A stretch of 64,000 bases of DNA from IMG/VR virus record IMGVR_UViG_3300042898_006838, positions 32,001-96,000 of that record; one strand, 5' to 3'. Below, piece after piece: positions 9,838 through 50,240 of this stretch. This DNA is from a virus. Position 1 is the first letter of the stretch; every line of letters begins with the position of its first letter. Position numbers and translations under genes: made by a program. The notes under the pieces are model-generated. The model did not search any database. It saw only the letters and a program-made list of their open reading frames with translations, and had not been told where the DNA came from.

Positions 9838-10353
9838 TCACGTCCTCTGAATGGCGAGACGGTAAGAGACTTCGAGTGTGGCCGACACGACCTGGACGAT
9901 GGGCGTGCTCAACAGCGTCGCCGCGCAGATGCCGCTGGGTCCGGACTTGAGGTTCGTGAAACCGTCCTGCGACGCGTTCCGGGTCAATCCGATCATACGT
10001 ATCGTCCGCTGAACCGGCGGTACGGCAAAGACGACCTGGTACGTCCAGATGCGATTGGGGCCGTCGATAGACGGGACGACGCCTATGAGCGAGACGCCAG
10101 GCATCGTCGTGCGCATGGAGCTGCGCTTGGGGTGCATGGCCTCCGTGGTCTCGTGGAGAAACACGCACATGTTCGCATGTGCAAGGTCGTTGGCCGCAAA
10201 GAGCAACCGATAGTACTCGGTGATCATGTTGTGCTGATGGACGTGCTGCAGGATGTTGCCATCGGCATCGCGCAGCACGGCATCGATCGTGCCTTCGACA
10301 TTTGGCAGCCCCGGCTGGCCAGTGAGCAGTTCCGCCAACGGCTTGCGTGTCAT
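9838..10353 (-). CDS. Hypothetical tail / baseplate protein
   Basis: ATGA-coupled to the upstream gene; beta-strand-rich 171 aa. Confidence 0.6.
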   Translation of the reverse strand: MTRKPLAELLTGQPGLPNVEGTIDAVLRDADGNILQHVHQHNMITEYYRLLFAANDLAHANMCVFLHETTEAMHPKRSSMRTTMPGVSLIGVVPSIDGPNRIWTYQVVFAVPPVQRTIRMIGLTRNASQDGFTNLKSGPSGICAATLLSTPIVQVVSATLEVSYRLAIQRT

Positions 10354-11822
10354 GACCCGGCTCCGATGTTGACAGTGTTGCGTGCGACGAAACTGGCCGG
10401 GGCGACGCTGTCTGCGCCCGTCACACTCCAGACGAGAGCGCCGTTGTTAGCGTCGGCGCCGGGGGCCGTCAACGCGACGACGCGCACGCTCGTGGCACTG
10501 ATTATCTCCACGATCGTCCACGAGCCGTTGTTGGCGGCTGTCGCCGCGCCACTGACCGTGATCTGCCGATCCAGGTGCTGACGGCTCATCTGCACGAGGC
10601 CCGTGAACACAACATGCCCGCCGACGGCCGAGGCCATGGCCGCCGCCGTGCCCACGGCCGGGAACCAGGTGCGTGTGAAACCGGCTTCACCGCTGTGGCC
10701 CGTGTAGCCGCTGACCACCGGGCCGTCGGTGGGCACAGCCAGTTTCAGCGGCGCGAAGGTCACGGTGCTGTGCGTGTGCTGCGGGCTCTCGCCGGTGAAC
10801 CCGGCGCGCAAGAAGTCGCCGTTCGTAGCCCCGGCGTCGGCGCTGCGTGCCGTCAGCCTGCGCATGGCCGACGCGCCCTGATCGCCGTAGACGCTCTGGG
10901 TGTAGTAGCGGTCACCTTCGGCGTATGCCGGGTCCAGGAACACCTGAATCTCTGTCGAGTACGGGAGCTCGGCGACCTGGACGGCGGCGCCGGTGTTGAT
11001 CTTGAACAGACGCACGGAGGTGATGAGCGTGCTCGATACTGGCGGCACGATCGCGGCAGCCGGCGTGCCCAGGAACGCGACGGGCGCCGGCGAGTTCGGT
11101 GGCGAGCTGAACGTGATGAAGGGACTCTCTCCGGTGAACCCAGAGACCAGTGGTCCGTCTGTGGGCACAGCGAGCTTGATGGGTGTGAAGGTGACGACGT
11201 CGTGCCTGTGGTTCGGGCTTTCCCCCGTGACGCCGGACTTGATGTTCGACTTCAGGATGCTGGGCTGTGCCAGTGTGCTGGGTACCTCGTCGTCGGCGCC
11301 GCTGACGAGGAAGACCTTGCCGTTCTGAATGTAGACGATCTCGACCTCGTTGGTGAGCTCGTTGAATCCGACGTCGACCTTGTCCCCGGGCACGACTAAA
11401 ACTTCAGCGGTCAGGGGATCGTCTTTTCGAGCGTAGATGTTACCGGGCACGCGGGAGTACACGACCCAGGGCGCGGAGCTGGTCTCGGCGATACGCGGGA
11501 CGCTGGCGTCGTCAGTGAACGTGATCTGGCGCAGGCCGACTTGGAACATATAACTGAAAACTGGGGACAGAGAACCGGTGACGCTGACGTTTACGACCGA
11601 GCCACTGACCATCGTCGACGGCTGGTCGAGCACCAGGCGCAGGCCGCCTGTGACTGGGATAGACAACGCCATCCATCCGGCTAGGGCGCTGACTCCATTC
11701 CAGACCTGAACGGAGTCGACGGCCACGGACGTGATCGTCTCGCCGAGTGCGTCAAAGATCAGTGCCGTGTTAACGGGCACAAGTCTCTCGCCAGATCTTG
11801 GTGTCACGAGTGTGATCGTCAC
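10350..11822 (-). CDS. Virion structural protein with an internal ~38-aa duplication
   Basis: GxTGESP...KLAVPTDGP.VSG.TG occurs twice; Ig-like N terminus. Confidence 0.65.
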   Translation of the reverse strand: MTITLVTPRSGERLVPVNTALIFDALGETITSVAVDSVQVWNGVSALAGWMALSIPVTGGLRLVLDQPSTMVSGSVVNVSVTGSLSPVFSYMFQVGLRQITFTDDASVPRIAETSSAPWVVYSRVPGNIYARKDDPLTAEVLVVPGDKVDVGFNELTNEVEIVYIQNGKVFLVSGADDEVPSTLAQPSILKSNIKSGVTGESPNHRHDVVTFTPIKLAVPTDGPLVSGFTGESPFITFSSPPNSPAPVAFLGTPAAAIVPPVSSTLITSVRLFKINTGAAVQVAELPYSTEIQVFLDPAYAEGDRYYTQSVYGDQGASAMRRLTARSADAGATNGDFLRAGFTGESPQHTHSTVTFAPLKLAVPTDGPVVSGYTGHSGEAGFTRTWFPAVGTAAAMASAVGGHVVFTGLVQMSRQHLDRQITVSGAATAANNGSWTIVEIISATSVRVVALTAPGADANNGALVWSVTGADSVAPASFVARNTVNIGAGS

Positions 11823-29785: not shown

Positions 29786-32700
29786 ATGTACCAGCACGCC
29801 GAACGCACCTTCTCCGACGTCAAGCGAAACCTGGAGACCTACGTCCGGGGTCTGTTCCCCATCGAGGGCAAGAAGCGGACGCTGGTGCTCCGTGACCTGG
29901 AGATCAGGGACAACGCCGACCCAGGTGACTACGCCAGTCAGCGTCAGGCGCGCATGGCCGGCGAGAGCTGGAGCATCCCAGTCATCGCCGTCATGGAGCT
30001 GTTGGAAGGTGGCAAGGTCATCGACCGGGCGAAGATGAAGATCATCGACCTGCCGCGGCTGACCAACCGCGGTAGCTACATCGTCAACGGCACGGAGTTC
30101 ATGTTCCCGACGCAGAAGCGCCTGCGATCAGGACCCTACGTGCGCCTGGGCGAGAACGAGGAGCTGCGCACGTTCTTCAACGTCGCCAAGGGCCGCAGCT
30201 TCCACCTGGGTCTTCACCCGACCAAGGGCCACTTCCAGTTCCAGATCGAGAGTAGCAAAAACATCCCCCTGTACCCGCTGCTGCAGGTCCTGGGCGTCAG
30301 CGACGACGATATGGTCAGGGCCTGGGGCCGAGAGGTCTGGAAGGCCAACGTCGTCACCGACCCTGGTCAGCGAACCAAGGCGCTGCAGACCATCTACGAG
30401 AAGATGTCGTACGCACGAGATGATGTACCGGCTCCCACCGTCGAGCAGCTGCCTGATGCCATCAAGGCCATATTCTCAGCCACGGTTATCGACGGCGAGA
30501 ACACCGAGCTGACCATCGGTGAGCGTCACGACACAGTCAGTGGCCGGGCGGTGATGTTGGCGGCGGCGAAGATGTTGGGCGTGGCCCGAGGCGAGCGCGA
30601 GGAAGATAACCGCGACAGCCTCATCCACAACGACATCGTGGATCTTGGCGACTTCATCGTCGAACGCTTCCGAGACCCGCAGTTCCGAGGCCGCATCGTC
30701 AGGGCCGTGAAGTTCAACGTCGACCGTCGCGACAAGGTCAGCCAGATCATCAGCCGCGACAGCTTTCAGCGCCCGGTCGACAGCATGCTCACTGAGAGCC
30801 AACTGGCTCAGACCCCGAACCAGAACAATCCGCTGGGTATGATCAGCGACTACACACAGCTCACGGTCCGGGGCGAGGGTGGCATCCAGAACGACAACGC
30901 CCTGACACGCAGTGTCCGGGCCCTGGATCCCAGCCACCTGGGATTCATCGACCCCAGCCACACGCCCGAGGGCCAGGGCGTGGGCACGACCCTGCACCTG
31001 ACGACGAACACGGAGAAGCGTGGTCGCGACCTCGTGGCCCGTGTCATCGACGTCAAGACCGGCAAGGCCGTGGACCTCACTCCGGTACAGATCTTCAAGG
31101 CCACAGTCGCCTTCCCCGAGTCCTGGGACGGGAAGAAGCTCACGGGCCCGAAGGTCAAGGTCAGCCGACGCGGCGAGATCTCGAACGTGCCGGTGTCCGA
31201 GGCCCAGTACGTGTTCTCGAAGCCAGAGCACCTGATCGACGTCAACAGCGCCAGCATCCCCTTCCTCAGCCACAACAACGGCACGCGCGTGATGACGGCC
31301 AGCAAAATGGGCGCCCAGGCCAAGCCGCTGGAGACGCCGGAAGCGCCGTTGGTGCAGGTGGACAGCGGCGAGGGCACGACCGTCGAGGCCGTGGTCGGAG
31401 CCGCATTCTCACCGAAGTCTCCGGTCACCGGTATCGTGGAGAAGGTAGAGGAAGACGCGGTCATCATCTCCGGTCAGCGCGTGTCCATTCCCCGCCACTT
31501 CCCGTTGAACAGCAACAACTTCCTGCACGCACAGCCGACGGTGAAGGTCGGTGACAAGGTCTCCAAGGGCCAGGTCATCGCCGACACCAACTACACGGAC
31601 AAGGGCGTCATGGCCCTGGGGAAGAATCTGCTCGTGGCTTACACGCCCTACAAGGGCATGAACGTCGAAGACGGTGTGGTCATCAGCGAGACCGGCGCCA
31701 AGAAGATGACCAGCGAGCACATGTACCAGCAGCCGTACATGTTTGACGTCGACACGGTCATGGACCTGAAGAAGTTCCAGGCCTACTTCCCGGCCAAGAT
31801 CAAGAGTGCAGATGCCGAGAAACTCGACAGTCAGGGCGTGATCAAGAAGGGCCAGGTCGTCGGCCCCGGGTCCATCCTCGTCGCGGCCATGCGCAGGCAC
31901 GCGCCGACCACTGAGAGCCAGCGCCTGGCCGCTGTCAGCCGCATCCTGGCCAAAGAGTTCCGTGACGACAGCCTACGCTGGGAGAAGGACGTCACGGGCG
32001 TGGTTCAGGACGTGGCCAAGAGACCACGTGAGATCGTGGTCTTCGTGCGCACCAGCGAGGCCGCCCGTATCGGTGACAAGATCGCCGGTCGCTACGGCAA
32101 CAAGGGCATCATCGTGCACATCGTCGGCGACGCGGAGATGCCGCGTGACGCCAAGGGTCGGGTCCTGGACATGATGCTGAACCCAAACGGCGTCGTCAGC
32201 CGCATGAACATGGGTCAGATCATGGAGACGACGGCGAGTCGTATCAGCGAGAAGACGGGGAAGACGTTCGTGACCCGGGGCTTCGGCGAGGACAGCGCCA
32301 AGCGCATCGCCGCCGAACTCAAGGCCAACGGCCTCAAGGACCACGAGACCATCAGCGACCCCGTTGACGGCGCGGATATCCCCGGTGTGCTCGTCGGACG
32401 ACAGTACATCTATAAGCTCGAACACCAGGCGACGAAGAAGGTCGGGGCCCGGGGCATGGGCGCCGAGTACCCCTACGGCTACGAGGGGCAGGCTCCACGC
32501 GGAGCCCAGGGAGGACAGGCTATCGGCAGCATGGAGACCTACGCGCTCCTGGCCCATGGCGCGTTGTCCAATCTCCACGAGATGTACGGCGTGAAGAGCA
32601 GCTACGACTACGAGACCTGGAGAGCGCTGGAAAGCGGGGCTCCGCTGCCGCCTTCTAAGCCCAGCCACGCCTCGCAGAAGTTCCTGGCCATGCTCAAGGG

Positions 32701-35700
32701 TATGGGCGTCAACGTCGAGCAGCGCGGCAACGACATGGTGATGATGCCGTTCCTTGACCGGCACGTGAAAGAGATCAGCAACGGTGAAATCAGCAGCTTC
32801 CAGGTCCTGCGAGGCAAGGACTTGCGCGAGGAAAAGAACGGCCTATTCGACACGAAGAAGACGGGTGGCGTGCAAGGCGAGCAGTGGACGCACATCAAGC
32901 TTCCGGTGCCCATGCCGAACCCGACGTTCGCCAACGCCATCTTGAGCCTGCTGCACATGAGCCAGGAGGACTACGACGAGGTCCTGGCCGGCAAGAAGAA
33001 GATCGGCGGTCTCACGGGAGGCGAGGCCATCAAAGCCGAGTTGGCGAAGATCGACGTAGCCAAGCGCATCGCCGAAGTAGACCAGGAAATAAAGGGCAAG
33101 ACCGGTTCGTCACTGAACGCTCTGCACAAGGAGCTTCGGTTCCTGCGCGGGCTCAGGGAGACGGGGATCAAGCCCAGTGAGTACGTGATCTCGCTGCTCC
33201 CGGTCCTGCCGCCGAAGTTCCGTCCCGTGTACACGCTGCCCGACGGAAACCTTCGGATCAGCGACGTTAACTTCCACTACCAGAGCCTGCTGCAGCTCAA
33301 CGACCAGATGGGGAAGCTCAAAGGCCGCCAGTTCGATGACCAGCGCAAGGCCTTGGCATCCGAGATCTACAAGGCCGTCGGCGGCGTCACGGGCATGGGC
33401 GACGGTGTCGTCGAGCGGTCTCCGTCTCCCAAGGGCCTGGCGATGCAGATTGCCGGCGTCGGCAGTCCCAAGGGTGGATTCTTCCACTCCAGCCTGATGA
33501 AGAAGAGACAGGACGTGAGCGCCAGAAGCGTTATCGTCAGCAACCCGAGCCTGGGCCTGGACGAGGTCGGCGTTCCCGAGGCCGTGGCCTGGGACAGCTT
33601 CCGACCGTTCCTGATCAAGGAGCTGCGGAACATGGGTATGACCCCGCTTCAAGCCAAAGCAGCCGCCGACGCTCGTGGCGACGTGGCTAAGCGGGCCCTG
33701 GAAAACGTGATGAAGGATCGTCACGTCATTCTCAACCGCGCGCCGACCCTGCACAAGTTCAGCGTCATGGCCTTCAAGCCTCGACTGGTCCCTGGCTACG
33801 CGATTCAGATCCCGCCCCTGGTCGTCGGCGGCTTCAACGCCGACTTCGACGGCGACACCATGGCCATGCACGTGCCGGTCAGCGCCGAAGCCAACGCCGA
33901 GGCCGCGAAGATGTTGCCCAGTGCCAACCTCTACAAGCCCGGTAGCGGGAAGATGCAGCACAAGATCGAGCACGAGTACGTCCTGGGTCTGTTCAAGATC
34001 TCGCGTCCGGGAACCGTGTCGACGAAGAGGTACACGTCGACGGCCCAGGTGCTCAGCGACCTGCGCGCTAAGTCAGTGGCCCCTGATGCCGTAATCAGCG
34101 TCAGTGGCATCGGCAGCACCACACCCGGCCGCGTGCTCATCAACGACGTGTTCCCGGCTCGTCACCGAGACTACGGCCTGATCTTCAGCGACAAGGTCAT
34201 CCAGGCCAAGTTGACGGAGATCGACAAAGGCAGCGGTCGCGACGTTTTCGTGAAGTGCCTGCAGGCTCTGGCTGACATCGGCCGACGCTATGCCTACAGC
34301 ACGGGCAGCAGCTTCCTGCTCAGCGACTTGCAGACCATGGGCAAGGAGCGCAACGCCGCCTATCGCACGGCCGACGCCGCGGCCGACCGCGTTCGCAGTG
34401 GCCCGGGTAGCGACGATGACAAGAAGAAGAAGATCATCGACATCTACATGCGCGTTGGCGCCAAGCTGCAGTCGGAGATGAGGCTGGGCAACAACAGCAG
34501 CGGCCAGAGCAACAACATCAACGACATGATGACCGCCGGCGCGCGAGGCAACCCAGATCAGATCCGGCAGCTGGTTGGCAGCGTGGGTGTGATGCTCGAT
34601 CACAACAACAAGCCTATGCCAGAGCCAGTCCGCGGCACGTACACTGACGGCCTGACTACGAGCGAGTTCTTTGCCCACATGTACGGCAACCGTAAGGGCA
34701 TGATCGATAAGAGCCAGAGCGTGAAGGACCCAGGTGCGCTGACCAAGCAGGTCGTGGTCAGCGCCGCCGGCTACCGCGTCTCCAGCCTCGACTGTGGGAC
34801 GATGTCTGGCGTCTCTGAGTCCTGCGACGGGGTCAACGCCCTGGACCGCTGTTCGGCTGAGAACGTGCCTGGTCTGGTCAAGCGCAATGACTTCGTGACG
34901 TCCAAGGTCCTGGCCGCTTTCCGTGCCCGTGGCGTCAAGACCATCAAGATCAGGAGTCCGTTGACCTGCATAGCCGCCAGTGGCGTCTGTGTCCGATGTT
35001 ACGGTCTGGACGAAGAAGGTCAGGCGCCGGCTATCGGCGCCCACGTCGGAATCAAGGACACCCAGGGCCTCACAGAACCCAGCACGCAGTTGGCGATGAA
35101 GACATTTCACACTGGCGGTGTGGCCACGGGCAAGGCCAGTCTGACCACGGGCTTTGACCGCGTGAAGAAGCTGTTCACGATGCCGGATACCGTTCGCGAC
35201 AAGGCCACGATGGCCGAGGTCAGCGGGCGCGTGGAGTCCGTGGCCCCAAATCCGTTTGGCGGCACGATCGTGGTCGTAGCCGGAACCAAGCACCGCCTGG
35301 CCACGGGCCGCAAGGCCAGCGTCGTCGTCGGCGACCAGGTGACCAGGGGTCAGAAGATCAGCGACGGTGACATCCAGCCCCAGGACATGCTGCGTCTCAA
35401 CGGTTTGCGGGCAATGCAGCTTCAGCTCCGTGACGACATCGGCAGCGTCTACGCACAGGGCGGTGAGCGCCTGCACGCCAAGACCATCGAGGTGCCGGTG
35501 CGCATGCTCACGGAGAGCGTGAGAATCAACGACGCCGGAGACCACCCGAGCCTGGTGCCCGGCGACTACAGCACCTACGGCCGCGTCGACGACTGGAACC
35601 GTGGCCACCCTGGCAAGAAGCCTGTGAAGTACCTTCACATCCTGCCCGGCAGTGAGTACCTTCCGCATCGCAGCGACGACTGGGCCCAGCGCATGGCCCA

Positions 35701-35845
35701 CAACCGCGTCCAGCAGGTGCTGCAGGAAGCGCCGGCAATGGCAGCCAAGGCTCCGCTGTCCGGTGGCAGTCCCTTCGCCTCCCTGGCTTTCGGCAAACGG
35801 GTCGCGCAAGATCCATGGCGTTCAGGAGGATTGACCAGTGGCTGA
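29786..35845 (+). CDS. rpoBC: Fused DNA-directed RNA polymerase beta-beta' (single 2019-aa chain)
   Basis: beta motifs: GSYIVNG, SQLAQ..NQNNPL, GMNVEDG, GDKIAGRYGNKG, SRMNMGQ, GSMETYAL. beta' motifs: VLPP..RP, LNRAPTLH, NADFDGD (33836-33856), RSPLTC..VC..CYG, EPSTQLAMKTFH. Confidence 0.97.
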   Translation: MYQHAERTFSDVKRNLETYVRGLFPIEGKKRTLVLRDLEIRDNADPGDYASQRQARMAGESWSIPVIAVMELLEGGKVIDRAKMKIIDLPRLTNRGSYIVNGTEFMFPTQKRLRSGPYVRLGENEELRTFFNVAKGRSFHLGLHPTKGHFQFQIESSKNIPLYPLLQVLGVSDDDMVRAWGREVWKANVVTDPGQRTKALQTIYEKMSYARDDVPAPTVEQLPDAIKAIFSATVIDGENTELTIGERHDTVSGRAVMLAAAKMLGVARGEREEDNRDSLIHNDIVDLGDFIVERFRDPQFRGRIVRAVKFNVDRRDKVSQIISRDSFQRPVDSMLTESQLAQTPNQNNPLGMISDYTQLTVRGEGGIQNDNALTRSVRALDPSHLGFIDPSHTPEGQGVGTTLHLTTNTEKRGRDLVARVIDVKTGKAVDLTPVQIFKATVAFPESWDGKKLTGPKVKVSRRGEISNVPVSEAQYVFSKPEHLIDVNSASIPFLSHNNGTRVMTASKMGAQAKPLETPEAPLVQVDSGEGTTVEAVVGAAFSPKSPVTGIVEKVEEDAVIISGQRVSIPRHFPLNSNNFLHAQPTVKVGDKVSKGQVIADTNYTDKGVMALGKNLLVAYTPYKGMNVEDGVVISETGAKKMTSEHMYQQPYMFDVDTVMDLKKFQAYFPAKIKSADAEKLDSQGVIKKGQVVGPGSILVAAMRRHAPTTESQRLAAVSRILAKEFRDDSLRWEKDVTGVVQDVAKRPREIVVFVRTSEAARIGDKIAGRYGNKGIIVHIVGDAEMPRDAKGRVLDMMLNPNGVVSRMNMGQIMETTASRISEKTGKTFVTRGFGEDSAKRIAAELKANGLKDHETISDPVDGADIPGVLVGRQYIYKLEHQATKKVGARGMGAEYPYGYEGQAPRGAQGGQAIGSMETYALLAHGALSNLHEMYGVKSSYDYETWRALESGAPLPPSKPSHASQKFLAMLKGMGVNVEQRGNDMVMMPFLDRHVKEISNGEISSFQVLRGKDLREEKNGLFDTKKTGGVQGEQWTHIKLPVPMPNPTFANAILSLLHMSQEDYDEVLAGKKKIGGLTGGEAIKAELAKIDVAKRIAEVDQEIKGKTGSSLNALHKELRFLRGLRETGIKPSEYVISLLPVLPPKFRPVYTLPDGNLRISDVNFHYQSLLQLNDQMGKLKGRQFDDQRKALASEIYKAVGGVTGMGDGVVERSPSPKGLAMQIAGVGSPKGGFFHSSLMKKRQDVSARSVIVSNPSLGLDEVGVPEAVAWDSFRPFLIKELRNMGMTPLQAKAAADARGDVAKRALENVMKDRHVILNRAPTLHKFSVMAFKPRLVPGYAIQIPPLVVGGFNADFDGDTMAMHVPVSAEANAEAAKMLPSANLYKPGSGKMQHKIEHEYVLGLFKISRPGTVSTKRYTSTAQVLSDLRAKSVAPDAVISVSGIGSTTPGRVLINDVFPARHRDYGLIFSDKVIQAKLTEIDKGSGRDVFVKCLQALADIGRRYAYSTGSSFLLSDLQTMGKERNAAYRTADAAADRVRSGPGSDDDKKKKIIDIYMRVGAKLQSEMRLGNNSSGQSNNINDMMTAGARGNPDQIRQLVGSVGVMLDHNNKPMPEPVRGTYTDGLTTSEFFAHMYGNRKGMIDKSQSVKDPGALTKQVVVSAAGYRVSSLDCGTMSGVSESCDGVNALDRCSAENVPGLVKRNDFVTSKVLAAFRARGVKTIKIRSPLTCIAASGVCVRCYGLDEEGQAPAIGAHVGIKDTQGLTEPSTQLAMKTFHTGGVATGKASLTTGFDRVKKLFTMPDTVRDKATMAEVSGRVESVAPNPFGGTIVVVAGTKHRLATGRKASVVVGDQVTRGQKISDGDIQPQDMLRLNGLRAMQLQLRDDIGSVYAQGGERLHAKTIEVPVRMLTESVRINDAGDHPSLVPGDYSTYGRVDDWNRGHPGKKPVKYLHILPGSEYLPHRSDDWAQRMAHNRVQQVLQEAPAMAAKAPLSGGSPFASLAFGKRVAQDPWRSGGLTSG

Positions 35846-36233
35846 CTTCACACCAACTCGCATCAAAGACCAGGACATCAACGGCGTGTACACGCCAAGC
35901 GGGCCTGCGCAGACCATGCGGAAACGCATGCTAGGTGACGACGGGGCGTCGGTGACGGGGAAGAGCGAATGGGTGCGCATGACACCGAGCTCGAAGAGCT
36001 TCTTCCTCTACAACGTCAGCCGCACGGGCGCCGTCGGAGCCGCCGTCGTGCAGATCCACGGCGCCATGGAGCTCGCTGACGTTCCTGAGAATACGGCCTT
36101 CCAGCTCCTGGCCACTCTCAACGCCGCCGCCCCACACGCCAACGTCACCTCGCCATGGAGCTACATGCGCGCCGAGGTCACCGTCGCCGGCGCCTCGGCT
36201 GTGCAGGTGGGCATGGACACAGAGAACCCATGA
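35838..36233 (+). CDS. Hypothetical beta-rich virion protein
   Basis: AGGAGG RBS, GTG start; coupled to both neighbours. Confidence 0.65.
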   Translation: MADFTPTRIKDQDINGVYTPSGPAQTMRKRMLGDDGASVTGKSEWVRMTPSSKSFFLYNVSRTGAVGAAVVQIHGAMELADVPENTAFQLLATLNAAAPHANVTSPWSYMRAEVTVAGASAVQVGMDTENP

Positions 36234-36715
36234 ACAACCATGGCGTCAGAGACGGCATGGTCAAGGTGGCCATGCGAGCCGACGTCGAGGAGCAGGTGCT
36301 CACGGCGCTGACCACTCTCTTGCCCCGCGGTGTCGACCCGGGTCACGACGACGAACTCGACGACCTGCTCCCGGACGTCGGAGATCTTGAGGCCCTGGTC
36401 ATGGCCGTGGAGGAGAGTTTCGACGTCGACTTCACCGACGCCGAGGCCTTTGATCTCTTCGCCTTCGGCACCGTCGGTGACCTGATCGAGGCCGTGACCA
36501 AGCACCTGATGTCGAAGACCGCCGGCTATGACCGCGCCTACTACATCCAGAACCGTGAGCGTCTGAAGACCAAGAGCCGCACGTACCGCATGCGCAATCT
36601 CCACAGCGTCAGACGCAAGGCAAAGGCCTATCGACGCAAGGTCAAACGGCGTATGATCAGGCCGCGGAAACGCGTGGGCAGCGCCGGAAGCGGATATCAC
36701 TTTATCGCGAGGTAG
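36230..36715 (+). CDS. Acyl-carrier-protein-like domain lacking the phosphopantetheine Ser, fused to an Arg/Lys-rich tail
   Basis: DLLPDVGDLEALVMAVEESFDVDFTDAEA....TVGDLIEAV aligns with the ACP pattern DLGADSLD..ELVMALEEEFD.EI.DE.A....TV. Confidence 0.75.
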   Translation: MNNHGVRDGMVKVAMRADVEEQVLTALTTLLPRGVDPGHDDELDDLLPDVGDLEALVMAVEESFDVDFTDAEAFDLFAFGTVGDLIEAVTKHLMSKTAGYDRAYYIQNRERLKTKSRTYRMRNLHSVRRKAKAYRRKVKRRMIRPRKRVGSAGSGYHFIAR

Positions 36716-36718
36716 AAC

Positions 36719-37123
36719 GTGGACAAGTTGGCATTCGAAATCGGCGTCGCTGACGGCATCGAGAAGACGGCGATCTCAAATGACGTGGCCATGAGGGCCT
36801 TGGCTCGTCGTATTGATCAAGCTCGTCTTGCCGGAGGCAACGCTGATTTCATGACAAAAGGCCGAAAAGCGGTGCGGATGATAAATCGGACCCGCTCCTG
36901 GAAGGAAGGCAAGAACCAACGCGTGTATCTGCACAAGCGTACCGGAGCCGGCATGGAACAGCTCATGCGTCGCGCTCAGGAAGTCAAGAAGTCGCCTGTC
37001 GCCGACAAGGTCGTTGGCAGCAGCAAGAAGAAGAACATCGCCATGGGCCTGGGAGCCGCAGCCGGCGTCGGGGCCATGGGAGCCGGGGCCTACGGCCTCA
37101 ACCGCGCGCTGAAGGACGACTGA
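36719..37123 (+). CDS. Basic protein with an AFEIG..EKTA leader and a C-terminal Gly/Ala hydrophobic helix
   Basis: MDKLAFEIGVADGIEKTA...MGLGAAAGVGAMGAGAYGL. Confidence 0.7.
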   Translation: MDKLAFEIGVADGIEKTAISNDVAMRALARRIDQARLAGGNADFMTKGRKAVRMINRTRSWKEGKNQRVYLHKRTGAGMEQLMRRAQEVKKSPVADKVVGSSKKKNIAMGLGAAAGVGAMGAGAYGLNRALKDD

Positions 37124-37193: not shown

Positions 37194-38852
37194 ATGTGGA
37201 CCGACGAGGACGGGCGTGTGCACACCACGCCCAGCAACCTCGTGGCCAATCGCGTGAACATCAAGCCCGGCGTGCCATACAGCTTCGCCGACCGCCCGTT
37301 CATGACCCAGGTCTTCGACGACCCGTTCCCAGCCATCGGCTTGATGACGGCTCGGCAGATCAGCAAGTCCACGTTCCTGGCCGCTGATGCACTGGCAAGC
37401 TGTGAGGCCCTGTCGCCGTACACGGTCATGGTCCTGACTCCGAGCCAGGATCAGACGCGGAAGTTCAGCTACGACCGCCTGGGGCCCACGATTGCCAGTT
37501 CCCCGGCCGTGCGCTCGATGATGAGTGCCGAGAGCCTGGACAACGTCTTCGAGAAGAGCTTTGTCAACGGCAGCAAGATCTACCTCAGCTACGCCAAGGA
37601 GAACGCCGACCGCGTCCGCGGTATCAGCGCCGACCAGATCGACTACGACGAGATTCAGGACATGCACCTGAAGGCCGTCGAGGCCGTGACCAGGGAGTCT
37701 TTGTTCACCAGCCGCTACAAGCGCCGGCGCTACGGCGGCACGCCCAAGAGCTTCAGCAACGGCATCGAGCAGCGGGTCTGGAGGCAGAGCGACAGGCGCG
37801 AGTGGATGGTGCGCTGCCGTCACCACGCACCCATCTACCACCAGAAGCTGACGAAGAGGAACGTGGGCGTCAGCGGCCCGATCTGTGACCGCTGCGGCAA
37901 GAGCCTGTTCACGCTCGACGGCCTCTGGGTCTCGACGTCGTCGCTGACGCCAGACGGCAAGGTGCCGAGGATCCACGGCTACCACATCCCGCAGATCATC
38001 TTCCCGACCACTGACGTCGAGGTTGCCCCCGGCATCCGCGGATTCCTGGACTGGGGCTCGTTCAAGGACGAGATCGAGGACCCGAACACCGATGAGGCGA
38101 CAAAGCTCAACGAAAAGTGGGGTGAAAGCGCGGACAGCGAAGAGCGACCGGTGAAGGAGGACGAGCTCCGCGGCGCCTGCGTCGACGAGAGATCCATGCC
38201 ACAGGTCTGGCAGGAGTGGATGAAGGGCGAGTACTTGTTCGCGGGCCTGGACTGGGGAACGGGTCTGCAGTCGGCTACGGTCCTGACTATCGGCCAATTC
38301 GACCCCCGGGACCCGAAGATATTCCGCTACGTCTACGCCAAGCGCTACTTCGGGCGCGACGCCGACCCCAAGATCTGCGTTCCCGACATCCTGCGCAAGC
38401 TCCAGGACTTCCGAGTCTTCCGGGCCCACGCCGACTTCGGCAGCGGCCTGGGTCTGAACAGCCAGATCGAGGAGGCACGTGGCGAAGAGTTCCTGACCAC
38501 GAACTACTGGAGCAGCAGCATCGGCGGCAAGCGAGTGATCTACGACCCGGATCTCAGGCGCTACGTCCTGAACCGGAGCCTGCACATCACCCGCTTCTTC
38601 CAGGGACTGAAGAAGCGGAGCCTGCGCGTGGCCTTTGGCTGGCCAGACTTCCGCGTCTTCGCCGAGGACATCCTCCACGTCTTCCGCGAGGAGCGGAAGA
38701 ACGGCGACCCCTACTACGACCACAAGCCCGAGGAGCCGGACGACGCCATGCACGCCATGATCTACACCTGGCTCATCGCCAGCTTCCACCGCTACCGCAA
38801 CGAGGGCGTGGAGGTGGCGCGGACCACGCACGACCCGCAGTCCGGAGGCTAA
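37194..38852 (+). CDS. terL: Terminase large subunit
   Basis: ARQISKST Walker A, RGISAD..DYDE Walker B, GTPK motif, AGLDWG and PDDAMHA nuclease motifs. Confidence 0.9.
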   Translation: MWTDEDGRVHTTPSNLVANRVNIKPGVPYSFADRPFMTQVFDDPFPAIGLMTARQISKSTFLAADALASCEALSPYTVMVLTPSQDQTRKFSYDRLGPTIASSPAVRSMMSAESLDNVFEKSFVNGSKIYLSYAKENADRVRGISADQIDYDEIQDMHLKAVEAVTRESLFTSRYKRRRYGGTPKSFSNGIEQRVWRQSDRREWMVRCRHHAPIYHQKLTKRNVGVSGPICDRCGKSLFTLDGLWVSTSSLTPDGKVPRIHGYHIPQIIFPTTDVEVAPGIRGFLDWGSFKDEIEDPNTDEATKLNEKWGESADSEERPVKEDELRGACVDERSMPQVWQEWMKGEYLFAGLDWGTGLQSATVLTIGQFDPRDPKIFRYVYAKRYFGRDADPKICVPDILRKLQDFRVFRAHADFGSGLGLNSQIEEARGEEFLTTNYWSSSIGGKRVIYDPDLRRYVLNRSLHITRFFQGLKKRSLRVAFGWPDFRVFAEDILHVFREERKNGDPYYDHKPEEPDDAMHAMIYTWLIASFHRYRNEGVEVARTTHDPQSGG

Positions 38853-38892: not shown

Positions 38893-39201
38893 CTAGTTCA
38901 TGATCCAGCGCTGACCGTCAGCGCGGTTTTTTCCGCGTGAGAAAATGCCATCGACGTCGTCGATGCCCTGACCAGCTTCGTCGTCGATGAGGTCGAGGGA
39001 GAGGCGTTCAAGCGCCAGCTCTTCTGCACGGGTCCCGAAGAACCCTGCCCCTCTGGTTGCCCGGCAAGCCTTGCGTTTGCGGCCAGTGAGCCGGTCGACG
39101 TCTTCGTCGGCCAACTTCTCCGACCATGCGCACCTGCTGCAGAGGGCTCCCTTTTTGGGCGCCGATATGAGGCTGGTACAGCCTCTGCAGTTCACAGTCA
39201 T
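38893..39201 (-). CDS. Small zinc-finger (CxxC..CxxC) hypothetical protein
   Basis: CRGC...CSRC; lies between the motif and the terminator. Confidence 0.65.
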   Translation of the reverse strand: MTVNCRGCTSLISAPKKGALCSRCAWSEKLADEDVDRLTGRKRKACRATRGAGFFGTRAEELALERLSLDLIDDEAGQGIDDVDGIFSRGKNRADGQRWIMN

Positions 39202-39314: not shown

Positions 39315-40796
39315 TCAGCCGCCACCGTATTCCGGGACCGCGGACATGAACTGCTTGTTCAGATCGCTCTTCTCCCGACGACGCTCGTCGATCCATTGGT
39401 CAGGGCTCATCGGCGGCTTGGTCCTGAAGACCTTGTTGACCAGGGACTTGTTGTGAGCGGTCATGTAGCGCCGGACCTCTACGTTCCTCTCGTCCTCGGG
39501 AAGGTGGGCGTGACTGCGGAATCTGGCACTGCGGCCCACGGCCTGGTTGCCGCGTTCCGGGTTCCAGTGCTCTTCGGTCAGCTGCACCATCCGCACGCCC
39601 TTGAGATCCAGGCCCTCGCCGCCGGCGGGACTGAGGCCGAGAACACGCAGGCGTCCGGCGTTGAAGTCAGCCACCATCTGCCGGCGCTGAGCGTCGTTGA
39701 GGCTGCCGGTGAAGGCCGCGGACGGGATCTTTCGCCTGTTGAGCTCGTCGATCAGCGGCTGGACTCCGCTCTCGATGAAGTTGCTGTAGATCACGGTCTT
39801 GAAGGCCTTGTTGCCCGCAGACTGGCTGACGATGTCGTCGAGCATGGCCTTGAACTTCGGAGACTCCATGGCCTTGGTGGTGTAGAGGCTGGGGTTGTTG
39901 CTGATCTGGCGAGCCGCGGCCATGAAGCTGTTCATGTTCTTCAGGTCCTTCTTGCTCGGCGGCAGGTTGTTCTTGAGCTTGTAGGCCAGGACCGGATTCT
40001 TCGAGCTCAGAGCCTTCATCATCTGCTCTTGGCCCGGTGACATGGGCACGGTCACCACCGACTCACTGACCGTCGGAAGCTCTCGCTGGTAGGCCTCGTT
40101 TCCCGAGAAGCGGTGGACGACTGGCGACAGCTTGGCGCCAAGCCCGGCCTTGTTCTTCAGGCTCTCTTCGACTCCAGGCTTAACGCCACTGAGCCGTCCC
40201 CAGAGACTGACTGGTATCTGCTTCTCGTCGATGTGCTGGCGCTTGAAGTCCTCGATGCTCTCGAACACGGGCTTGCCGGCAGCCAGGTTCACCAGCGGCA
40301 CGATCTCCTCGGGCCGGTTGTTTATCATGCTGCCGGTGAGGCCGAGCATGAACTTCACCTTGCCGCGCACTTTGTCGAAGGCTTCGCGGGGCCCGGGGTT
40401 GCGTAGACGGTGGAACTCGTCGGCGATGATCGTCGTAGGCCGAGCCCGAGCAACCCAGCCCTCGGGATCGCGGCGAAACTCGTCGTAGCTGATGACCGTG
40501 TACGCGCCATGTCGCAGCGGGCTCACGTGATCTCGCAGCTGGCCCTGGAAGTTCTCACGCAATGCCGCCGGCGTCACGACCAGGACGTTGCCGCCCTTGG
40601 CCTCGGCGACGGCGATGGAGCCCAGGGTCTTGCCGCTACCCAGTCCCCAGTTCAGGACCATGCCCGATGACGTCGCCGAACGCGCCACGGCATCGGCCTG
40701 GTGCGGCTGCAGCTTGACGCTCGGGTTCAGGGCCGCGGTCTTGGTCAGCGCCGCCCGTGCTCGTGACGTGAACTCAGCAGCTGTCTTCGACGTCAT
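39315..40796 (-). CDS. SNF2-family (SF2) helicase/ATPase with a KTA-KTA N-terminal leader
   Basis: GLGSGKT, ADEFH, LTGS, GGEGLDL, WNP...QAVGRSAR. Confidence 0.9.
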   Translation of the reverse strand: MTSKTAAEFTSRARAALTKTAALNPSVKLQPHQADAVARSATSSGMVLNWGLGSGKTLGSIAVAEAKGGNVLVVTPAALRENFQGQLRDHVSPLRHGAYTVISYDEFRRDPEGWVARARPTTIIADEFHRLRNPGPREAFDKVRGKVKFMLGLTGSMINNRPEEIVPLVNLAAGKPVFESIEDFKRQHIDEKQIPVSLWGRLSGVKPGVEESLKNKAGLGAKLSPVVHRFSGNEAYQRELPTVSESVVTVPMSPGQEQMMKALSSKNPVLAYKLKNNLPPSKKDLKNMNSFMAAARQISNNPSLYTTKAMESPKFKAMLDDIVSQSAGNKAFKTVIYSNFIESGVQPLIDELNRRKIPSAAFTGSLNDAQRRQMVADFNAGRLRVLGLSPAGGEGLDLKGVRMVQLTEEHWNPERGNQAVGRSARFRSHAHLPEDERNVEVRRYMTAHNKSLVNKVFRTKPPMSPDQWIDERRREKSDLNKQFMSAVPEYGGG

Positions 40797-47342: not shown

Positions 47343-47938
47343 TGAACAAGAAATCAGGCCTTGGTTCGCTGATCATGCCCGGCATGGCTCTCGTCGACGC
47401 CGCCGAAAAGACCAAACAGTACAAGAAGATGCTGGATGTCCAGCAGGCGCCGCTGCCACCGAAGACCGCCGGAGCGAAGCAGATGCTGCGGTCATACCTG
47501 CACAAGAAAGCAAGCCTGAAGACCGAGGTCACAAAGGCCATGGCCGTCGGCGCCGGCCTCACCGCCGCCGGCGTCGGCATCGGCTTGGCGTCGAACGTCG
47601 TCGGCGACATGTACGTCAAGCTCCAGGCCGCGCGCATGTTCGCTGAGCTCAGCCGAAGGCACAGCGAAGTCCGAGGTAACAAGCGCGCTCGTGAGTACTT
47701 CGACCTGATCGTGGCCTATGCCCCCAGTCTTCTCCGCCATCCAAACGCCATCGGCGACTTCCTGCTGCGTCAGCTGCAGTACCCGATGTCCAGCGTCGAG
47801 TTCATCAAGCAGCTTGCCGATCTTGAGGCGACGGTGACGAAGACTGACCGCGGTTCGCTGGGCATGAACATCGGCGCTCAGGCCTCCGGCATGGCTTCGA
47901 ATGTGGCCGCATCCAGCTTCGTTGGCAAGAGGCGCTGA
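47339..47938 (+). CDS. Head-cluster protein with a Gly/Ala hydrophobic helix
   Basis: PKTAG, HKKAS, then AMAVGAGLTAAGVGIGLA. Confidence 0.7.
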   Translation: MMNKKSGLGSLIMPGMALVDAAEKTKQYKKMLDVQQAPLPPKTAGAKQMLRSYLHKKASLKTEVTKAMAVGAGLTAAGVGIGLASNVVGDMYVKLQAARMFAELSRRHSEVRGNKRAREYFDLIVAYAPSLLRHPNAIGDFLLRQLQYPMSSVEFIKQLADLEATVTKTDRGSLGMNIGAQASGMASNVAASSFVGKRR

Positions 47939-47939
47939 G

Positions 47940-49418
47940 ATGTGGAAAGTCATCGTCAACGAACCTGAGACCAAGTTTGGCCCGAGCTGGACATGGTTGG
48001 ACATGTCCAGCCGTCACTCCCTGCACAAGGTCGCCAGCACCGGCGTATTCGTGCCACCTGAACTGCAGGCAAAGATCGCTGAGATCCAGGGGCAGCTGCC
48101 GGGTGACAAGGTCGCGTTCTACAATCGGGCCCTGGGATCCTACGAGGCCTTCGGTCTGAACAGGAACGGCGACGGATTCGAGGCTGACTGGCTGCGAAGG
48201 AACCACGACACCTTCGTCAAGAACGGCCACTACTTCAAGCACCACCAGAACAAGGACCCGGCCCTGGGGCGAGGCCGTCCCGTCGCAAGCGCCTACAACG
48301 AGAAGACGGCGATGGTGGATCTGATCATCGTCGCCGACAGGGACAAGTGCGAGGAGCAGATCCAGGCCCTTGAACGTGGTCAGCGCGTGCCTACGTCGAT
48401 GGGAGCCAAGGTCGCCTTCGACGTCTGCACCATCTGCGAGAACCGGGCTCCGAACCGCGACTCGTACTGCGAGCACGTGAAGACCGCGGCCCTGGAGCCC
48501 TACGGCATGTCCCGCGTTCTCAGCGATGGCCGTGTCTGTGGCGTGTTGAATCCGAACCCAGGTTTCTTTGACATCAGCGACGTCATCGTCGGAGCCGCGG
48601 CCGAGAGCGAGACGCTGATGAAGGTCGCCGGCTACGGGAAGCTGTCGGGAGCAGACCTGGCCGTACTCACCGGCCTGTCGAAGATCGGCGACGAGAAGGG
48701 CGCAGCGATGTCCAAGCGCCTGCCCGGCGAGATCGACGCCGCCTACCACCCGCTGTCGTCGCGAGCAGAAGACTTCAGCAGCCGTGAGGTCGACATCCCG
48801 GATGCGGACATCGACCGCGTTCGCGAGCGCTCTGGCTTCGAAGGTGTGTTGCGGAACAGTGCGGCCCTGGGCATCGTGCTCAAGCCCAGCGAGTTCGCAA
48901 GAGCCGCGAAACTGAGCTCTTTCTCTGCGCCAACCCTGAAAGAGATTTTGCGCAGTGAATCTGCCCCAAAAAAGATTCTGACGGCGGCACTCGACGACGG
49001 CTCGCTTCAGATCCTGTCTCGCTTCTACGACCAACGCAGCAGCCAGCAGCCGGCCCTCATGAACAGGATCTCAAGCCCTGGTCAAAAAATCGCCTCACGT
49101 CTGGAAGGCGAAAACGCTGATGCCAAGCGCATGTACTGCGCGTACCGCCGATCTCTTCTTGACGTCGACAGCGAAGATACTCGCTGGTCCATGAAGTGTG
49201 CGGGAACGAGCGACCGGTACCGGACAGAAACAAGCCGCGCCTACACGCTTCACGTCTTCACCGAGCCTGAGATCAGGGAGAAAGTCCTTGACCGGATCAC
49301 GAAGGTTGCCGGACAATCACGCGGCACTGGATTCGGTCCCGTCAGCGGATCGATGGCAGATGAACTCGGTGTTGAAGTACTTGAACTTCTTGCGGTACAG
49401 TCTATCCAGACTTTTTGA
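47940..49418 (+). CDS. Prohead maturation protease (putative) with a zinc-binding insertion
   Basis: NRNGDGF, HH, TSMG (candidate catalytic Ser), CTIC..CEH, FFDIS; upstream of the scaffold and capsid genes. Confidence 0.75.
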   Translation: MWKVIVNEPETKFGPSWTWLDMSSRHSLHKVASTGVFVPPELQAKIAEIQGQLPGDKVAFYNRALGSYEAFGLNRNGDGFEADWLRRNHDTFVKNGHYFKHHQNKDPALGRGRPVASAYNEKTAMVDLIIVADRDKCEEQIQALERGQRVPTSMGAKVAFDVCTICENRAPNRDSYCEHVKTAALEPYGMSRVLSDGRVCGVLNPNPGFFDISDVIVGAAAESETLMKVAGYGKLSGADLAVLTGLSKIGDEKGAAMSKRLPGEIDAAYHPLSSRAEDFSSREVDIPDADIDRVRERSGFEGVLRNSAALGIVLKPSEFARAAKLSSFSAPTLKEILRSESAPKKILTAALDDGSLQILSRFYDQRSSQQPALMNRISSPGQKIASRLEGENADAKRMYCAYRRSLLDVDSEDTRWSMKCAGTSDRYRTETSRAYTLHVFTEPEIREKVLDRITKVAGQSRGTGFGPVSGSMADELGVEVLELLAVQSIQTF

Positions 49419-49451
49419 CCGCCGGACTTCGGAAAAAGAATGGGAGCAAAC

Positions 49452-50240
49452 ATGAGCGACATCGCCAACCTCTACAACGAGGTCATGAACCAGGCGGAAG
49501 CCGAGAAGACGGCATCCGACATGAGCGAGGGCCCAGCCTTCGACAAGACTTTCTTCGAGAAGGTTGCCAACGGTGAGGAGGACGCTGTCGAAGCGCTCAA
49601 CTCCTTCATCGACGACGCCCGTTCCGAAGGCTACAGCGATGAACAGATCGAGGAAGCCATCGGCGAGTCGATGAGCGAAGCCGGCATCATCGAGAGCGAA
49701 GACGAAGGCGAAGGCGCTGACGACGGCGAAGACGAGTTCGAGCTCCACAAGGCCGCGGCTTACGCCGAGGGCGCCACGAAGGCCGTCGAAGACGTCCTTG
49801 AGACCGAGATGGCGAAGACCGCCGGCGTCACCGCCGAGGACTTCATGGAGTACGAGGTCGGCATGGCCTACGGCCAGGGCTACGCGGAAACGCGTCGCGC
49901 CGCCGAAGAGATCGTGACCAAGATCGCGGCCGCCAAGATCCCCGGCCAGAAGCTCAAGATGGGCGTCGGCGCCAAGCTCAAGCAGTACTTCCAGGGCGGC
50001 AGCGCCATGGACCGTGCGGCCAAGCGTCTCGCCGGCTCCGGCATCCAGGGCAACGCGAGCCTCAGCGACGGCACCGGCCGCATCCCGATGCAGGTCCGCA
50101 AGGCCATCCTCAGCGAAGAGAAGTCGGCCGTGAAGGGCATCGGCAAACGCCGCAAGGCCGTCGCCGGTGGTCTCGCCCTTGGTGCCGTCGGCGCCGGCGG
50201 CGCTGCTGCTGGTATGGCCGCTCGGAAGAACCGGGACTGA
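49452..50240 (+). CDS. Scaffolding-like protein: acidic N terminus, basic Gly-rich C terminus
   Basis: GGGAG RBS; D/E-rich segments separated by EKTAS, EKVAN, HKAAA, AKTAG, TKIAA. Confidence 0.65.
   Translation: MSDIANLYNEVMNQAEAEKTASDMSEGPAFDKTFFEKVANGEEDAVEALNSFIDDARSEGYSDEQIEEAIGESMSEAGIIESEDEGEGADDGEDEFELHKAAAYAEGATKAVEDVLETEMAKTAGVTAEDFMEYEVGMAYGQGYAETRRAAEEIVTKIAAAKIPGQKLKMGVGAKLKQYFQGGSAMDRAAKRLAGSGIQGNASLSDGTGRIPMQVRKAILSEEKSAVKGIGKRRKAVAGGLALGAVGAGGAAAGMAARKNRD

Follow-up and report, generated by a model that had tools for sequence, protein, structure and literature searches.

The internal proteins IPI-III and Alt of phage T4 carry an N-terminal capsid-targeting sequence that is cut by the gp21 prohead protease, the motif of which is L/I-x-E. 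The adenovirus core precursors pVII and pX/Mu are also cut by a viral protease. A possible counterpart of these precursors is encoded in IMG/VR virus record IMGVR_UViG_3300042898_006838, where a 161-amino-acid (aa) protein joins a short leader, a domain with the fold of acyl carrier protein (ACP) that lacks the cofactor serine, and a basic C-terminal module. The window, which is the whole 64,000-nucleotide stretch of DNA that was analysed, covers bases 32001-96000 of this record, a single phage sequence of 155,932 bp with 63% G+C and a CheckV completeness of 96%; the phage is uncultured. The 161-aa protein is proposed to be the precursor of an internal head protein, which the head protease would split into an acidic ACP look-alike and a basic module that binds DNA. 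This proposal is a tentative one, held at a little under even chances. The analogy to the T4 internal proteins follows reviews (PMC9026906, PMC9958956, PMC5512222). One of them (Iyer, Burroughs, Anand, de Souza, Aravind 2017; PMC5512222) reports InPase domains, of the kind also met in relatives of the present protein, in 'polyvalent' phage proteins, for which packaging and injection are predicted, and proposes peptidase processing of such proteins.

The target open reading frame (ORF) and its parts are as follows.

36230..36715, plus strand: target ORF, 161 aa plus stop, with leader, ACP-like domain, K-T-A and basic tail
36230..36271, plus strand: N-terminal leader, residues 1-14, ending K12-V13-A14 (36263-36271)
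36272..36523, plus strand: serine-less ACP-fold domain, residues 15-98, ending K96-T97-A98 (36515-36523)
36524..36712, plus strand: basic C-terminal module, residues 99-161

The leader ends in M-V-K-V-A, and residue 15 is Met. The middle domain (residues 15-98) is acidic, with an isoelectric point (pI) of 4.05 and a net charge of -17, and its last five residues (94-98) are M-S-K-T-A, directly ahead of the basic module. The module (residues 99-161) has a pI of 11.9, a net charge of +21, and 23 K/R in 63 residues. Judged from the sequence, this arrangement of leader, ACP fold, and basic module with a motif-marked boundary is probably that of a precursor that is cut up inside the capsid. The G+C content at third codon positions (GC3) is 0.78 in the frame of the ORF. 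The ratio of nonsynonymous to synonymous substitution (dN/dS) against the 86%-identical homologue, L009, is 0.12 overall, 0.076 in the ACP part, and 0.16 in the tail. Three other gene models were dropped. An antisense 179-aa ORF (36161-36700) is the shadow frame of a GC-rich gene, a longer in-frame start at 36155 falls inside the upstream gene, and an internal ATG at 36272 was rejected as the true start because the leader is conserved at the protein level in homologues of 53% identity. All of the sequence features listed by the first-pass annotation are present where it placed them. Its interpretation was supported in part: the ACP fold, the serine loss, the K-x-A boundaries, and the insertion of the domain stood, whereas the protamine-like tail and the claim that the domain begins with its own Met did not. 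In the closest homologue, Val replaces the Met that follows K-V-A, and further homologues have L, S, I, or another residue there. Met15 is thus unconserved among homologues and is no relic start codon.

The middle domain is an ACP fold and a remote ACP relative that stands outside the working carrier family. The evidence for the fold consists of predicted models. An AlphaFold2 (AF2) model of the protein has a predicted local distance difference test score (pLDDT) of 72.7. When it was compared with PDB by Foldseek, all matches listed were ACP or other carrier-protein (phosphopantetheine-binding, PP-binding) domains, with template modelling (TM) scores mostly of 0.65-0.81 by target and root-mean-square deviations of about 2-3 Å over about 79 residues. 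The top BFVD matches to the AF2 model were phage carrier proteins. ESM Atlas's own model of the protein matched PP-binding clusters at TM 0.73-0.83. Both independent models predict the ACP helical bundle that had been claimed for residues 15-98, and the sequence matches, weak as they are, agree with them. In a phmmer search of PDB with the target, ACPs accounted for 38 of 40 weak matches, in one register, and a profile of 17 family members retrieved ACPs in 29 of 30 PDB matches, with a best E of 1.6e-3 and full ACP length covered. The target matched PHROG 5934 'acyl carrier protein' at E 2.8e-4. The first family profile, run against a library of 1.8 billion proteins, picked out a 1066-aa synthetase by its three genuine carrier domains (E 1.6e-4). 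Pfam PF00550 (PP-binding) gave no match to the target at E <= 1 and none in the whole genome, in six frames, at E <= 10.

The phosphopantetheine serine of ACPs, which lies in the DSL motif, aligns to V50 of the target (codon 36377-36379, GTC). The loss of this serine had been reported for the single protein and extends across the family: in 18 homologues (16 aligned, plus L013 and L014) the column holds V, D, E, G, H, or I, with Asp or Glu in most and Ser in none. A working carrier protein, loaded at another residue or by an unusual transferase, is therefore scarcely credible, since the canonical Ser is missing throughout these homologues, the Pfam PP-binding model has no match, and neither a phosphopantetheinyl transferase (PPTase; PF01648) nor genes of acyl, polyketide, or peptide synthesis were recognised in the phage genome; in its favour, P0015 has a Ser one position past the canonical site and L013 has a Thr there. 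Helix II of the domain keeps the AcpP-like reading L-V-M-A-x-E-E-x-F-D. The ACP part is not decaying; its dN/dS of 0.076 is below that of the tail. Compared with AcpP (type II ACP; PF00550; PDB 6lvt, 2x2b, 1l0h), the domain shares the predicted four-helix fold at the TM scores given above, the acidic character, the nearly identical helix II, and alignment over the full length. It differs in having V50, and mostly D/E in homologues, at the cofactor site, in falling below every Pfam threshold, in belonging to a phage genome without a PPTase, and in being flanked by a leader and a basic module in the product of a late operon.

The basic C-terminal module is the constant part of a larger family. 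A profile search of 1.8 billion representatives yielded 74 proteins, and the region common to most of them was the basic tail, with the match ending within 6 residues of the C-terminus in 54 of the 74. The phage genome has a single copy of the tail. A tail model built from a 29-sequence alignment (pLDDT 86.6) predicts helices at 3-31 and 33-48 and a β-hairpin at 55-59/65-69, which amounts to a long kinked helix, or two helices, followed by a terminal β-hairpin. The conserved positions are Y-Y, Y-R, R-R, Y-R, R, G, and G. Because of this predicted fold and these positions, the tail is better regarded as a folded mini-domain than as the protamine-like tract of the first-pass annotation. It resembles protamine-like peptides in its very high K/R content and differs from them in its predicted fold and in having no low-complexity disordered Arg tracts.

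Searches with known families returned little for the tail. Pfam gave nothing meaningful on the target and 29 tail-family members. PHROGs gave only families of unknown function on the tail family, plus weak HNH-endonuclease matches (best E 0.0027). The tail profile had no match among PDB sequences, and Foldseek and VIA-align on the tail model gave only generic long-helix matches with Z of 4.3 or less. Neither the target protein nor two tail-only relatives matched any of 50,697 phage records by tblastn, and an IMG/VR scan with family alignment A1 confirmed no locus. A feature-based comparison in ESM Atlas placed the tail near viral hypothetical clusters at the 0.80 level, which is a lead only, and gave no usable match for the whole protein. 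The structural neighbours of the tail include, weakly, proteins with NUMOD4/HNH and GIY-YIG domains, a likeness that provides a faint hint of DNA binding. In P0066, a foreign GIY-YIG-type protein with tandem Y-Y-I-D-N-x-E-K repeats, the tail profile matches three stretches. From sequence comparison, the Y-Y-x-x-N-R-E periodicity of the tail may be related to repeats of the P0066 type, which accompany homing endonucleases.

The N-terminal partner of the tail varies. There are 27 tail-only proteins of 56-100 aa. Acidic ACP-like or ACP-derived N-parts are, by inspection, the commonest companion, in about 28 of the 74 representative clusters. Other partners are a Peptidase_C92/NlpC-type amidase (P0052, E 1e-7) and InPase PF18823 (P0076, E 2e-33), and P0063 has an N-part with HExxH, a metalloprotease motif, that was seen by eye and has no Pfam match. 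In these comparisons, the tail defines a family without annotation whose N-terminal domain is swapped between none, ACP-like, amidase, and InPase.

The leader has the 14-residue signature F-E-x-G-V-R-x-G-φ-x-K-V/T-A and is conserved in relatives, among them the homologues P0008, L014, and L009. A leader profile built from six foreign homologues only gave seven N-terminal matches in the genome, with scores of 16.7, 15.5 (the target, in second place), 12.9, 11.0, 7.5, 6.4, and 5.0; the best scores in the controls, ten shuffles and reversed proteins, were 4.1 and 4.6, respectively. At genome positions 144071-153605 (minus strand), 48-57 kb past the end of the window, at least six small proteins have the same N-terminal leader. 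Most of these have Gly-zipper membrane-like segments, and the cluster is interleaved with holin-like proteins with a single transmembrane segment and with a P-loop protein of 502 aa in which a leader-like site occurs internally.

The K-x-A motif that closes both leader and ACP domain was counted over the genome. The loose form K-x-A is at expectation (225 seen, 212 expected), whereas KTA (26 against 11.2, z 4.5) and φ-x-K-[TVLI]-A (28 against 12.2, z 4.6) are in excess. The head gene cluster has 31 K[TV]A sites where 8.0 would be expected, which is about four-fold (z 8.4), a z-score that is partly circular since the limits of the cluster were drawn by a reader already aware of the motif. The other 126 proteins of the genome have 11 against 17 expected. 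Only the stricter forms, K[TV]A and φ-x-K-[TVLI]-A, are in excess, and only in the head cluster; orthologues at about 45-50% identity keep most of the K[TV]A sites. Of 70 tail-family proteins, 68 have K-x-[AGS] no more than 22 residues ahead of the tail, where 22.3 would be expected. ACP-bearing forms have K-x-A at both insert boundaries, and tail-only forms have one. The bracket around the domain, to which the earlier annotation had drawn attention, is real and conserved and, on these sequence counts, is not due to chance. A SNF2-type helicase in the window (39315-40796, minus strand; PHROG 62, E 7e-50) has K-T-A twice within its first 21 residues, and the second copy is kept in the L011 orthologue. 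This conserved site raises the question of whether the helicase is also processed or packaged.

The candidate processing enzyme and a neighbouring head gene are encoded at the following positions.

47901..49418, plus strand: head-maturation-protease homologue, 505 aa, candidate processing enzyme
49440-50240, plus strand: scaffold-like protein, 266 aa, very acidic, scaffold by composition alone, between the protease and capsid genes

The 505-aa product itself matches PHROG 18299 'head maturation protease' weakly (E 6.8e-4). In its family, 18 of 22 members match this PHROG, with a best E of 5.4e-9. H115, S166, and H192 are invariant in the family, and three Cys (C176, C179, and C190) are conserved. 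Pfam and PDB gave no match to the homologue, also when a profile was searched against PDB sequences; the protease fold is therefore putative. The protease domain ends at an invariant K241-x-A243, which is followed by an indel-rich linker, and a second conserved K-φ-A lies at residues 41-43. The protease domain is thus bracketed like the ACP domain, which provides the strongest indirect argument for φ-x-K-(T/V)-A as the maturation cleavage site; the motif would serve as such a site in the present proposal. The protease gene is located just upstream of the scaffold-like protein, which contains K[TV]A three times and K-I-A once and has a C-terminal Gly-zipper, and of the capsid candidate, which matches PHROG 2522 major head protein weakly (E 6.2e-7).

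The same motif could have a different meaning in an uncleaved cytoplasmic adaptor. In that case, leader and K-T-A would be structural or docking helices, and the intact protein would tether a protein partner, held by its ACP-like face, to nucleic acid, held by the basic module, for example as an accessory factor of the co-transcribed RNA polymerase (RNAP). The enrichment of φ-x-K-[TV]-A only in head-module proteins is difficult to reconcile with this, as are the bracketing of the protease domain at invariant positions ahead of a variable linker, the pair of K-x-A sites in ACP-bearing forms as against one in tail-only forms, and the presence among the swapped N-domains of enzymes typical of injected phage proteins. 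What speaks for an adaptor is the sharing of an operon with the single-chain RNAP without an intervening terminator, the position of K-T-A at the end of predicted helix IV (residues 82-96), where it could be a mere part of the modelled fold, and the weak hints from the Y-Y-x-x-N-x-E pattern and the HNH/NUMOD4/GIY-YIG neighbours of the tail. Such an adaptor is considered unlikely.

In the proposed internal head protein pathway, the target would be a late-transcribed gene of the operon that also encodes the phage RNA polymerase and the large terminase. The short leader, which heads at least seven otherwise unrelated phage proteins, would by analogy with T4 take the precursor into the procapsid. 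The head maturation protease would then cleave directly behind A14 and A98, the ends of two φ-x-K-(T/V)-A sites. Three products would result: the leader peptide (14 residues); the acidic ACP-fold domain (84 residues), now free and incapable of carrying phosphopantetheine; and a folded basic module of 63 residues that is expected to bind the packaged DNA and stay there. The ACP-like domain would be one of several interchangeable N-terminal passengers on the constant basic module, the alternatives being none, a C92/NlpC-type amidase, an InPase pyrophosphatase, and, by eye only, an HExxH domain. Most likely, the domain would either imitate host ACP as a protein-binding look-alike, set free in the cell together with the DNA, or keep hold of the basic module as its acidic partner up to the arrival of the DNA.

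This pathway resembles that of the T4 internal proteins and Alt in several respects. A short N-terminal leader is common to unrelated proteins, the protease motif is enriched in head proteins, the basic products are expected beside the DNA, variable passengers occupy a conserved slot, and a head maturation protease, here a homologue by sequence, is encoded next to the scaffold-like and candidate capsid genes. It differs in having no sequence relationship to the T4 proteins, in its motif, which is φ-x-K-(T/V)-A and not L/I-x-E, and in the second internal site, which would split the target into an acidic and a basic product. With adenovirus pVII and pX/Mu, the target shares, by prediction, a basic DNA-associated product that arises from a precursor by a virion protease inside the capsid. 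The virus, the protease, and the motif are unrelated, and the basic part of the target is predicted to be folded with conserved Tyr and is not an Arg-rich disordered peptide. The combination of a leader, protease-type punctuation, and a basic module with swapped passengers has no match in the family libraries or the literature searched. PHROG and Pfam internal-protein families likewise do not match the target, and neither did the phage records searched by tblastn.

Comparison of loci supports the view of the ACP domain as an insert, as the first annotation had suggested. Five lineages (the window with L009; L001; L011/L012; L013; and L014), with terminase identity down to 55%, share the order of RNAP, a protein of about 135 aa with no known family and an apparently β-rich sequence, the leader-ACP-KxA-tail protein, an optional small leader-bearing protein, and terminase. 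L004 has a closely similar RNAP C-terminus, and its corresponding slot is taken by an 80-aa leader-EKTA-tail protein without the ACP domain. The junction of that protein, EKTA-AYSH, recurs in P0007 behind the ACP domain, and P0008 has the near-identical EKNA-AYSH. Because of this slot and junction, the ACP domain behaves as an insert with K-x-A at each end. In the distant lineage of L005, L007, and L016, homologues of two late proteins of the window (1054 aa and 223 aa) are encoded ahead of the tail gene, and one syntenic slot is filled in turn by tail-only, amidase-tail, and InPase-tail proteins. Members with an InPase or amidase at the place of the ACP domain lend indirect support to the idea of a delivered cargo that the first annotation had put forward. 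The family resembles the polyvalent, virion-packaged effectors (PMC5512222) in that effector-type domains, InPase PF18823 and a papain-like amidase, take turns on one constant module within structural operons. It differs in that its proteins are small, with one passenger each, and in that the constant module is a 63-residue basic domain absent from the families searched (Pfam, PHROGs, PDB).

The charges of the two halves raise the further explanation that the ACP-like domain is only a pro-domain, which would neutralise or solubilise the +21 module until its removal by the protease and would have no host target. The charges of -17 and +21 nearly cancel, the acidic N-parts are the commonest tail companion and range from -4 to -25, and Asp or Glu is usual at the Ser position. 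The net charge of the tail varies across the family from +10 to +23, mostly +13 or more, and yet the leaders of the 27 tail-only members are near neutral (mean -1), and some other N-parts are themselves at +20 to +31. Since such tail-only and basic-N-part members exist, the tail needs no acidic partner in general. In addition, purifying selection in the closest pair is stronger on the ACP part than on the tail, and the retained AcpP-like helix II exceeds the needs of a mere counter-charge. A pure charge-neutralising role is weakened by these findings and appears rather improbable.

The operon that contains the target consists of the following elements.

29786..35845, plus strand: single-chain β-β' RNA polymerase, 2019 aa, first gene of the operon
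35838..36233, plus strand: 131-aa ORF upstream of the target, no known family, translationally coupled (ATGA), syntenic in all close relatives
36719..37123, plus strand: 134-aa ORF downstream of the target, best-scoring leader in the genome, ending E-K-T-A
37194..38852, plus strand: large terminase, GpA_ATPase type, final gene of the operon
38908-38924: terminator-like hairpin after the large terminase

The order is thus single-chain β-β' RNA polymerase, 131-aa ORF, target, 134-aa ORF, and large terminase, and no terminator-like site was found within the operon upstream of 38908-38924. The start codon of the target forms an ATGA overlap with the stop of the 131-aa ORF, which is retained as GTGA in the nearest relative, L009. 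The 131-aa protein is apparently β-rich, as judged by eye. The closest cultured-phage match of the large terminase is that of Salmonella phage Arash, at 28% identity. The 134-aa protein has, after its leader, a basic stretch and then a Gly-zipper membrane-like C-terminal segment. In P0051, P0054, and P0073 of other phages, Gly-zipper segments like this one are fused with the basic tail in one protein.

The position of the gene introduces the chief rival of the internal head protein, which is a small-terminase-like packaging factor. Here, the basic helices and the β-hairpin would oligomerise and bind DNA, the ACP-like domain would replace the usual N-domain, and the protein would be neither cleaved nor packaged. 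The small-terminase fold has a DNA-binding N-domain, a helical hairpin core, and a β-barrel, and the modelled order of the target, with its helical N-domain, long helices, and C-terminal β-hairpin, loosely recalls the architecture of small terminases such as Sf6 gp1 and the SPP1-type G1P. The following observations weigh against an internal head protein, and the first of them speak directly for the packaging factor. The target-type gene abuts the large terminase in L001 and is its immediate upstream neighbour in L011/L012, and one small gene stands between the two in the window, L009, L013, and L014. In six relatives, the gene or a tail-only orthologue occupies the usual small-terminase position, and no small terminase was recognised in the genome, where PF07471 (Nu1-type) and PF03592 (Terminase_2-type) are absent. 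K[TV]A is missing from the candidate major capsid protein, and not all head proteins are therefore marked by the motif. Most of the proteins with the leader are small and Gly-zipper membrane-like and lie near holin-like genes. Because its carriers are mostly Gly-zipper proteins, the leader may serve membrane or assembly docking and not capsid targeting. The failure of PF00550 on the target and on the six-frame genome, and the partial circularity of the head-cluster score, belong to the same side.

Several results are hard to fit to a terminase subunit. The N-domain, at net -17, would be unable to bind DNA and matches carrier proteins only. In L005/L007/L016, the slot lies at the end of a structural operon with no recognisable terminase in 7-8 kb flanks, and the orthologues there combine an amidase with a membrane-like segment or carry an InPase. 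The leader is common to the target and unrelated small proteins, and no small-terminase hidden Markov model of Pfam or PHROG matches the target. The tail model gave no clear match to PDB folds and speaks for neither side. A predicted complex of the large terminase with the full target scored 0.00 without controls, which is evidence neither for nor against. A packaging factor of this type is judged improbable; if the internal head protein fails, the target would remain the sole positional candidate for the missing small terminase of these phages.

A broader form of the internal head protein proposal is that the family represents an undescribed cargo system in an uncultured clade of large phages. 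The basic C-module would anchor to DNA, the 14-residue leader and the φ-x-K-(T/V)-A 'punctuation' would complete the system, and the passengers would be loaded, freed, and injected, with the ACP mimic titrating a host ACP partner. This broader form is possible but doubtful. The passengers would then be a serine-less ACP decoy, a cell-wall amidase, and a pyrophosphatase, an assignment that is similarly doubtful. If the head-protease motif φ-x-K-T/V-A is correct, mature virion products could be predicted from sequence for the whole clade, a lineage with no cultured member. The basic module would be a small, portable element for capsid loading and DNA anchoring that belongs to no family, and further injected effectors could be found by architecture. 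The domain would also be another independent case of phages retaining the ACP fold and discarding ACP chemistry. The late operon, protease sites, and passenger swapping point to delivery into the host, and, if that is true, the hunt for a partner is well defined.

Two neighbours of the target in the operon show further variation in L001. The orthologous single-chain RNA polymerase (L001:134-8929) has 2931 aa as compared with 2019 aa in the phage of the window, and its gene table lists Intein_splicing and LAGLIDADG matches, so it probably carries inteins. The upstream 131-aa protein is duplicated there (L001:8922-10001) as copies of 142 aa and 215 aa. Part of the 215-aa copy also matches the 490-aa product of window positions 10350-11822 (minus strand).

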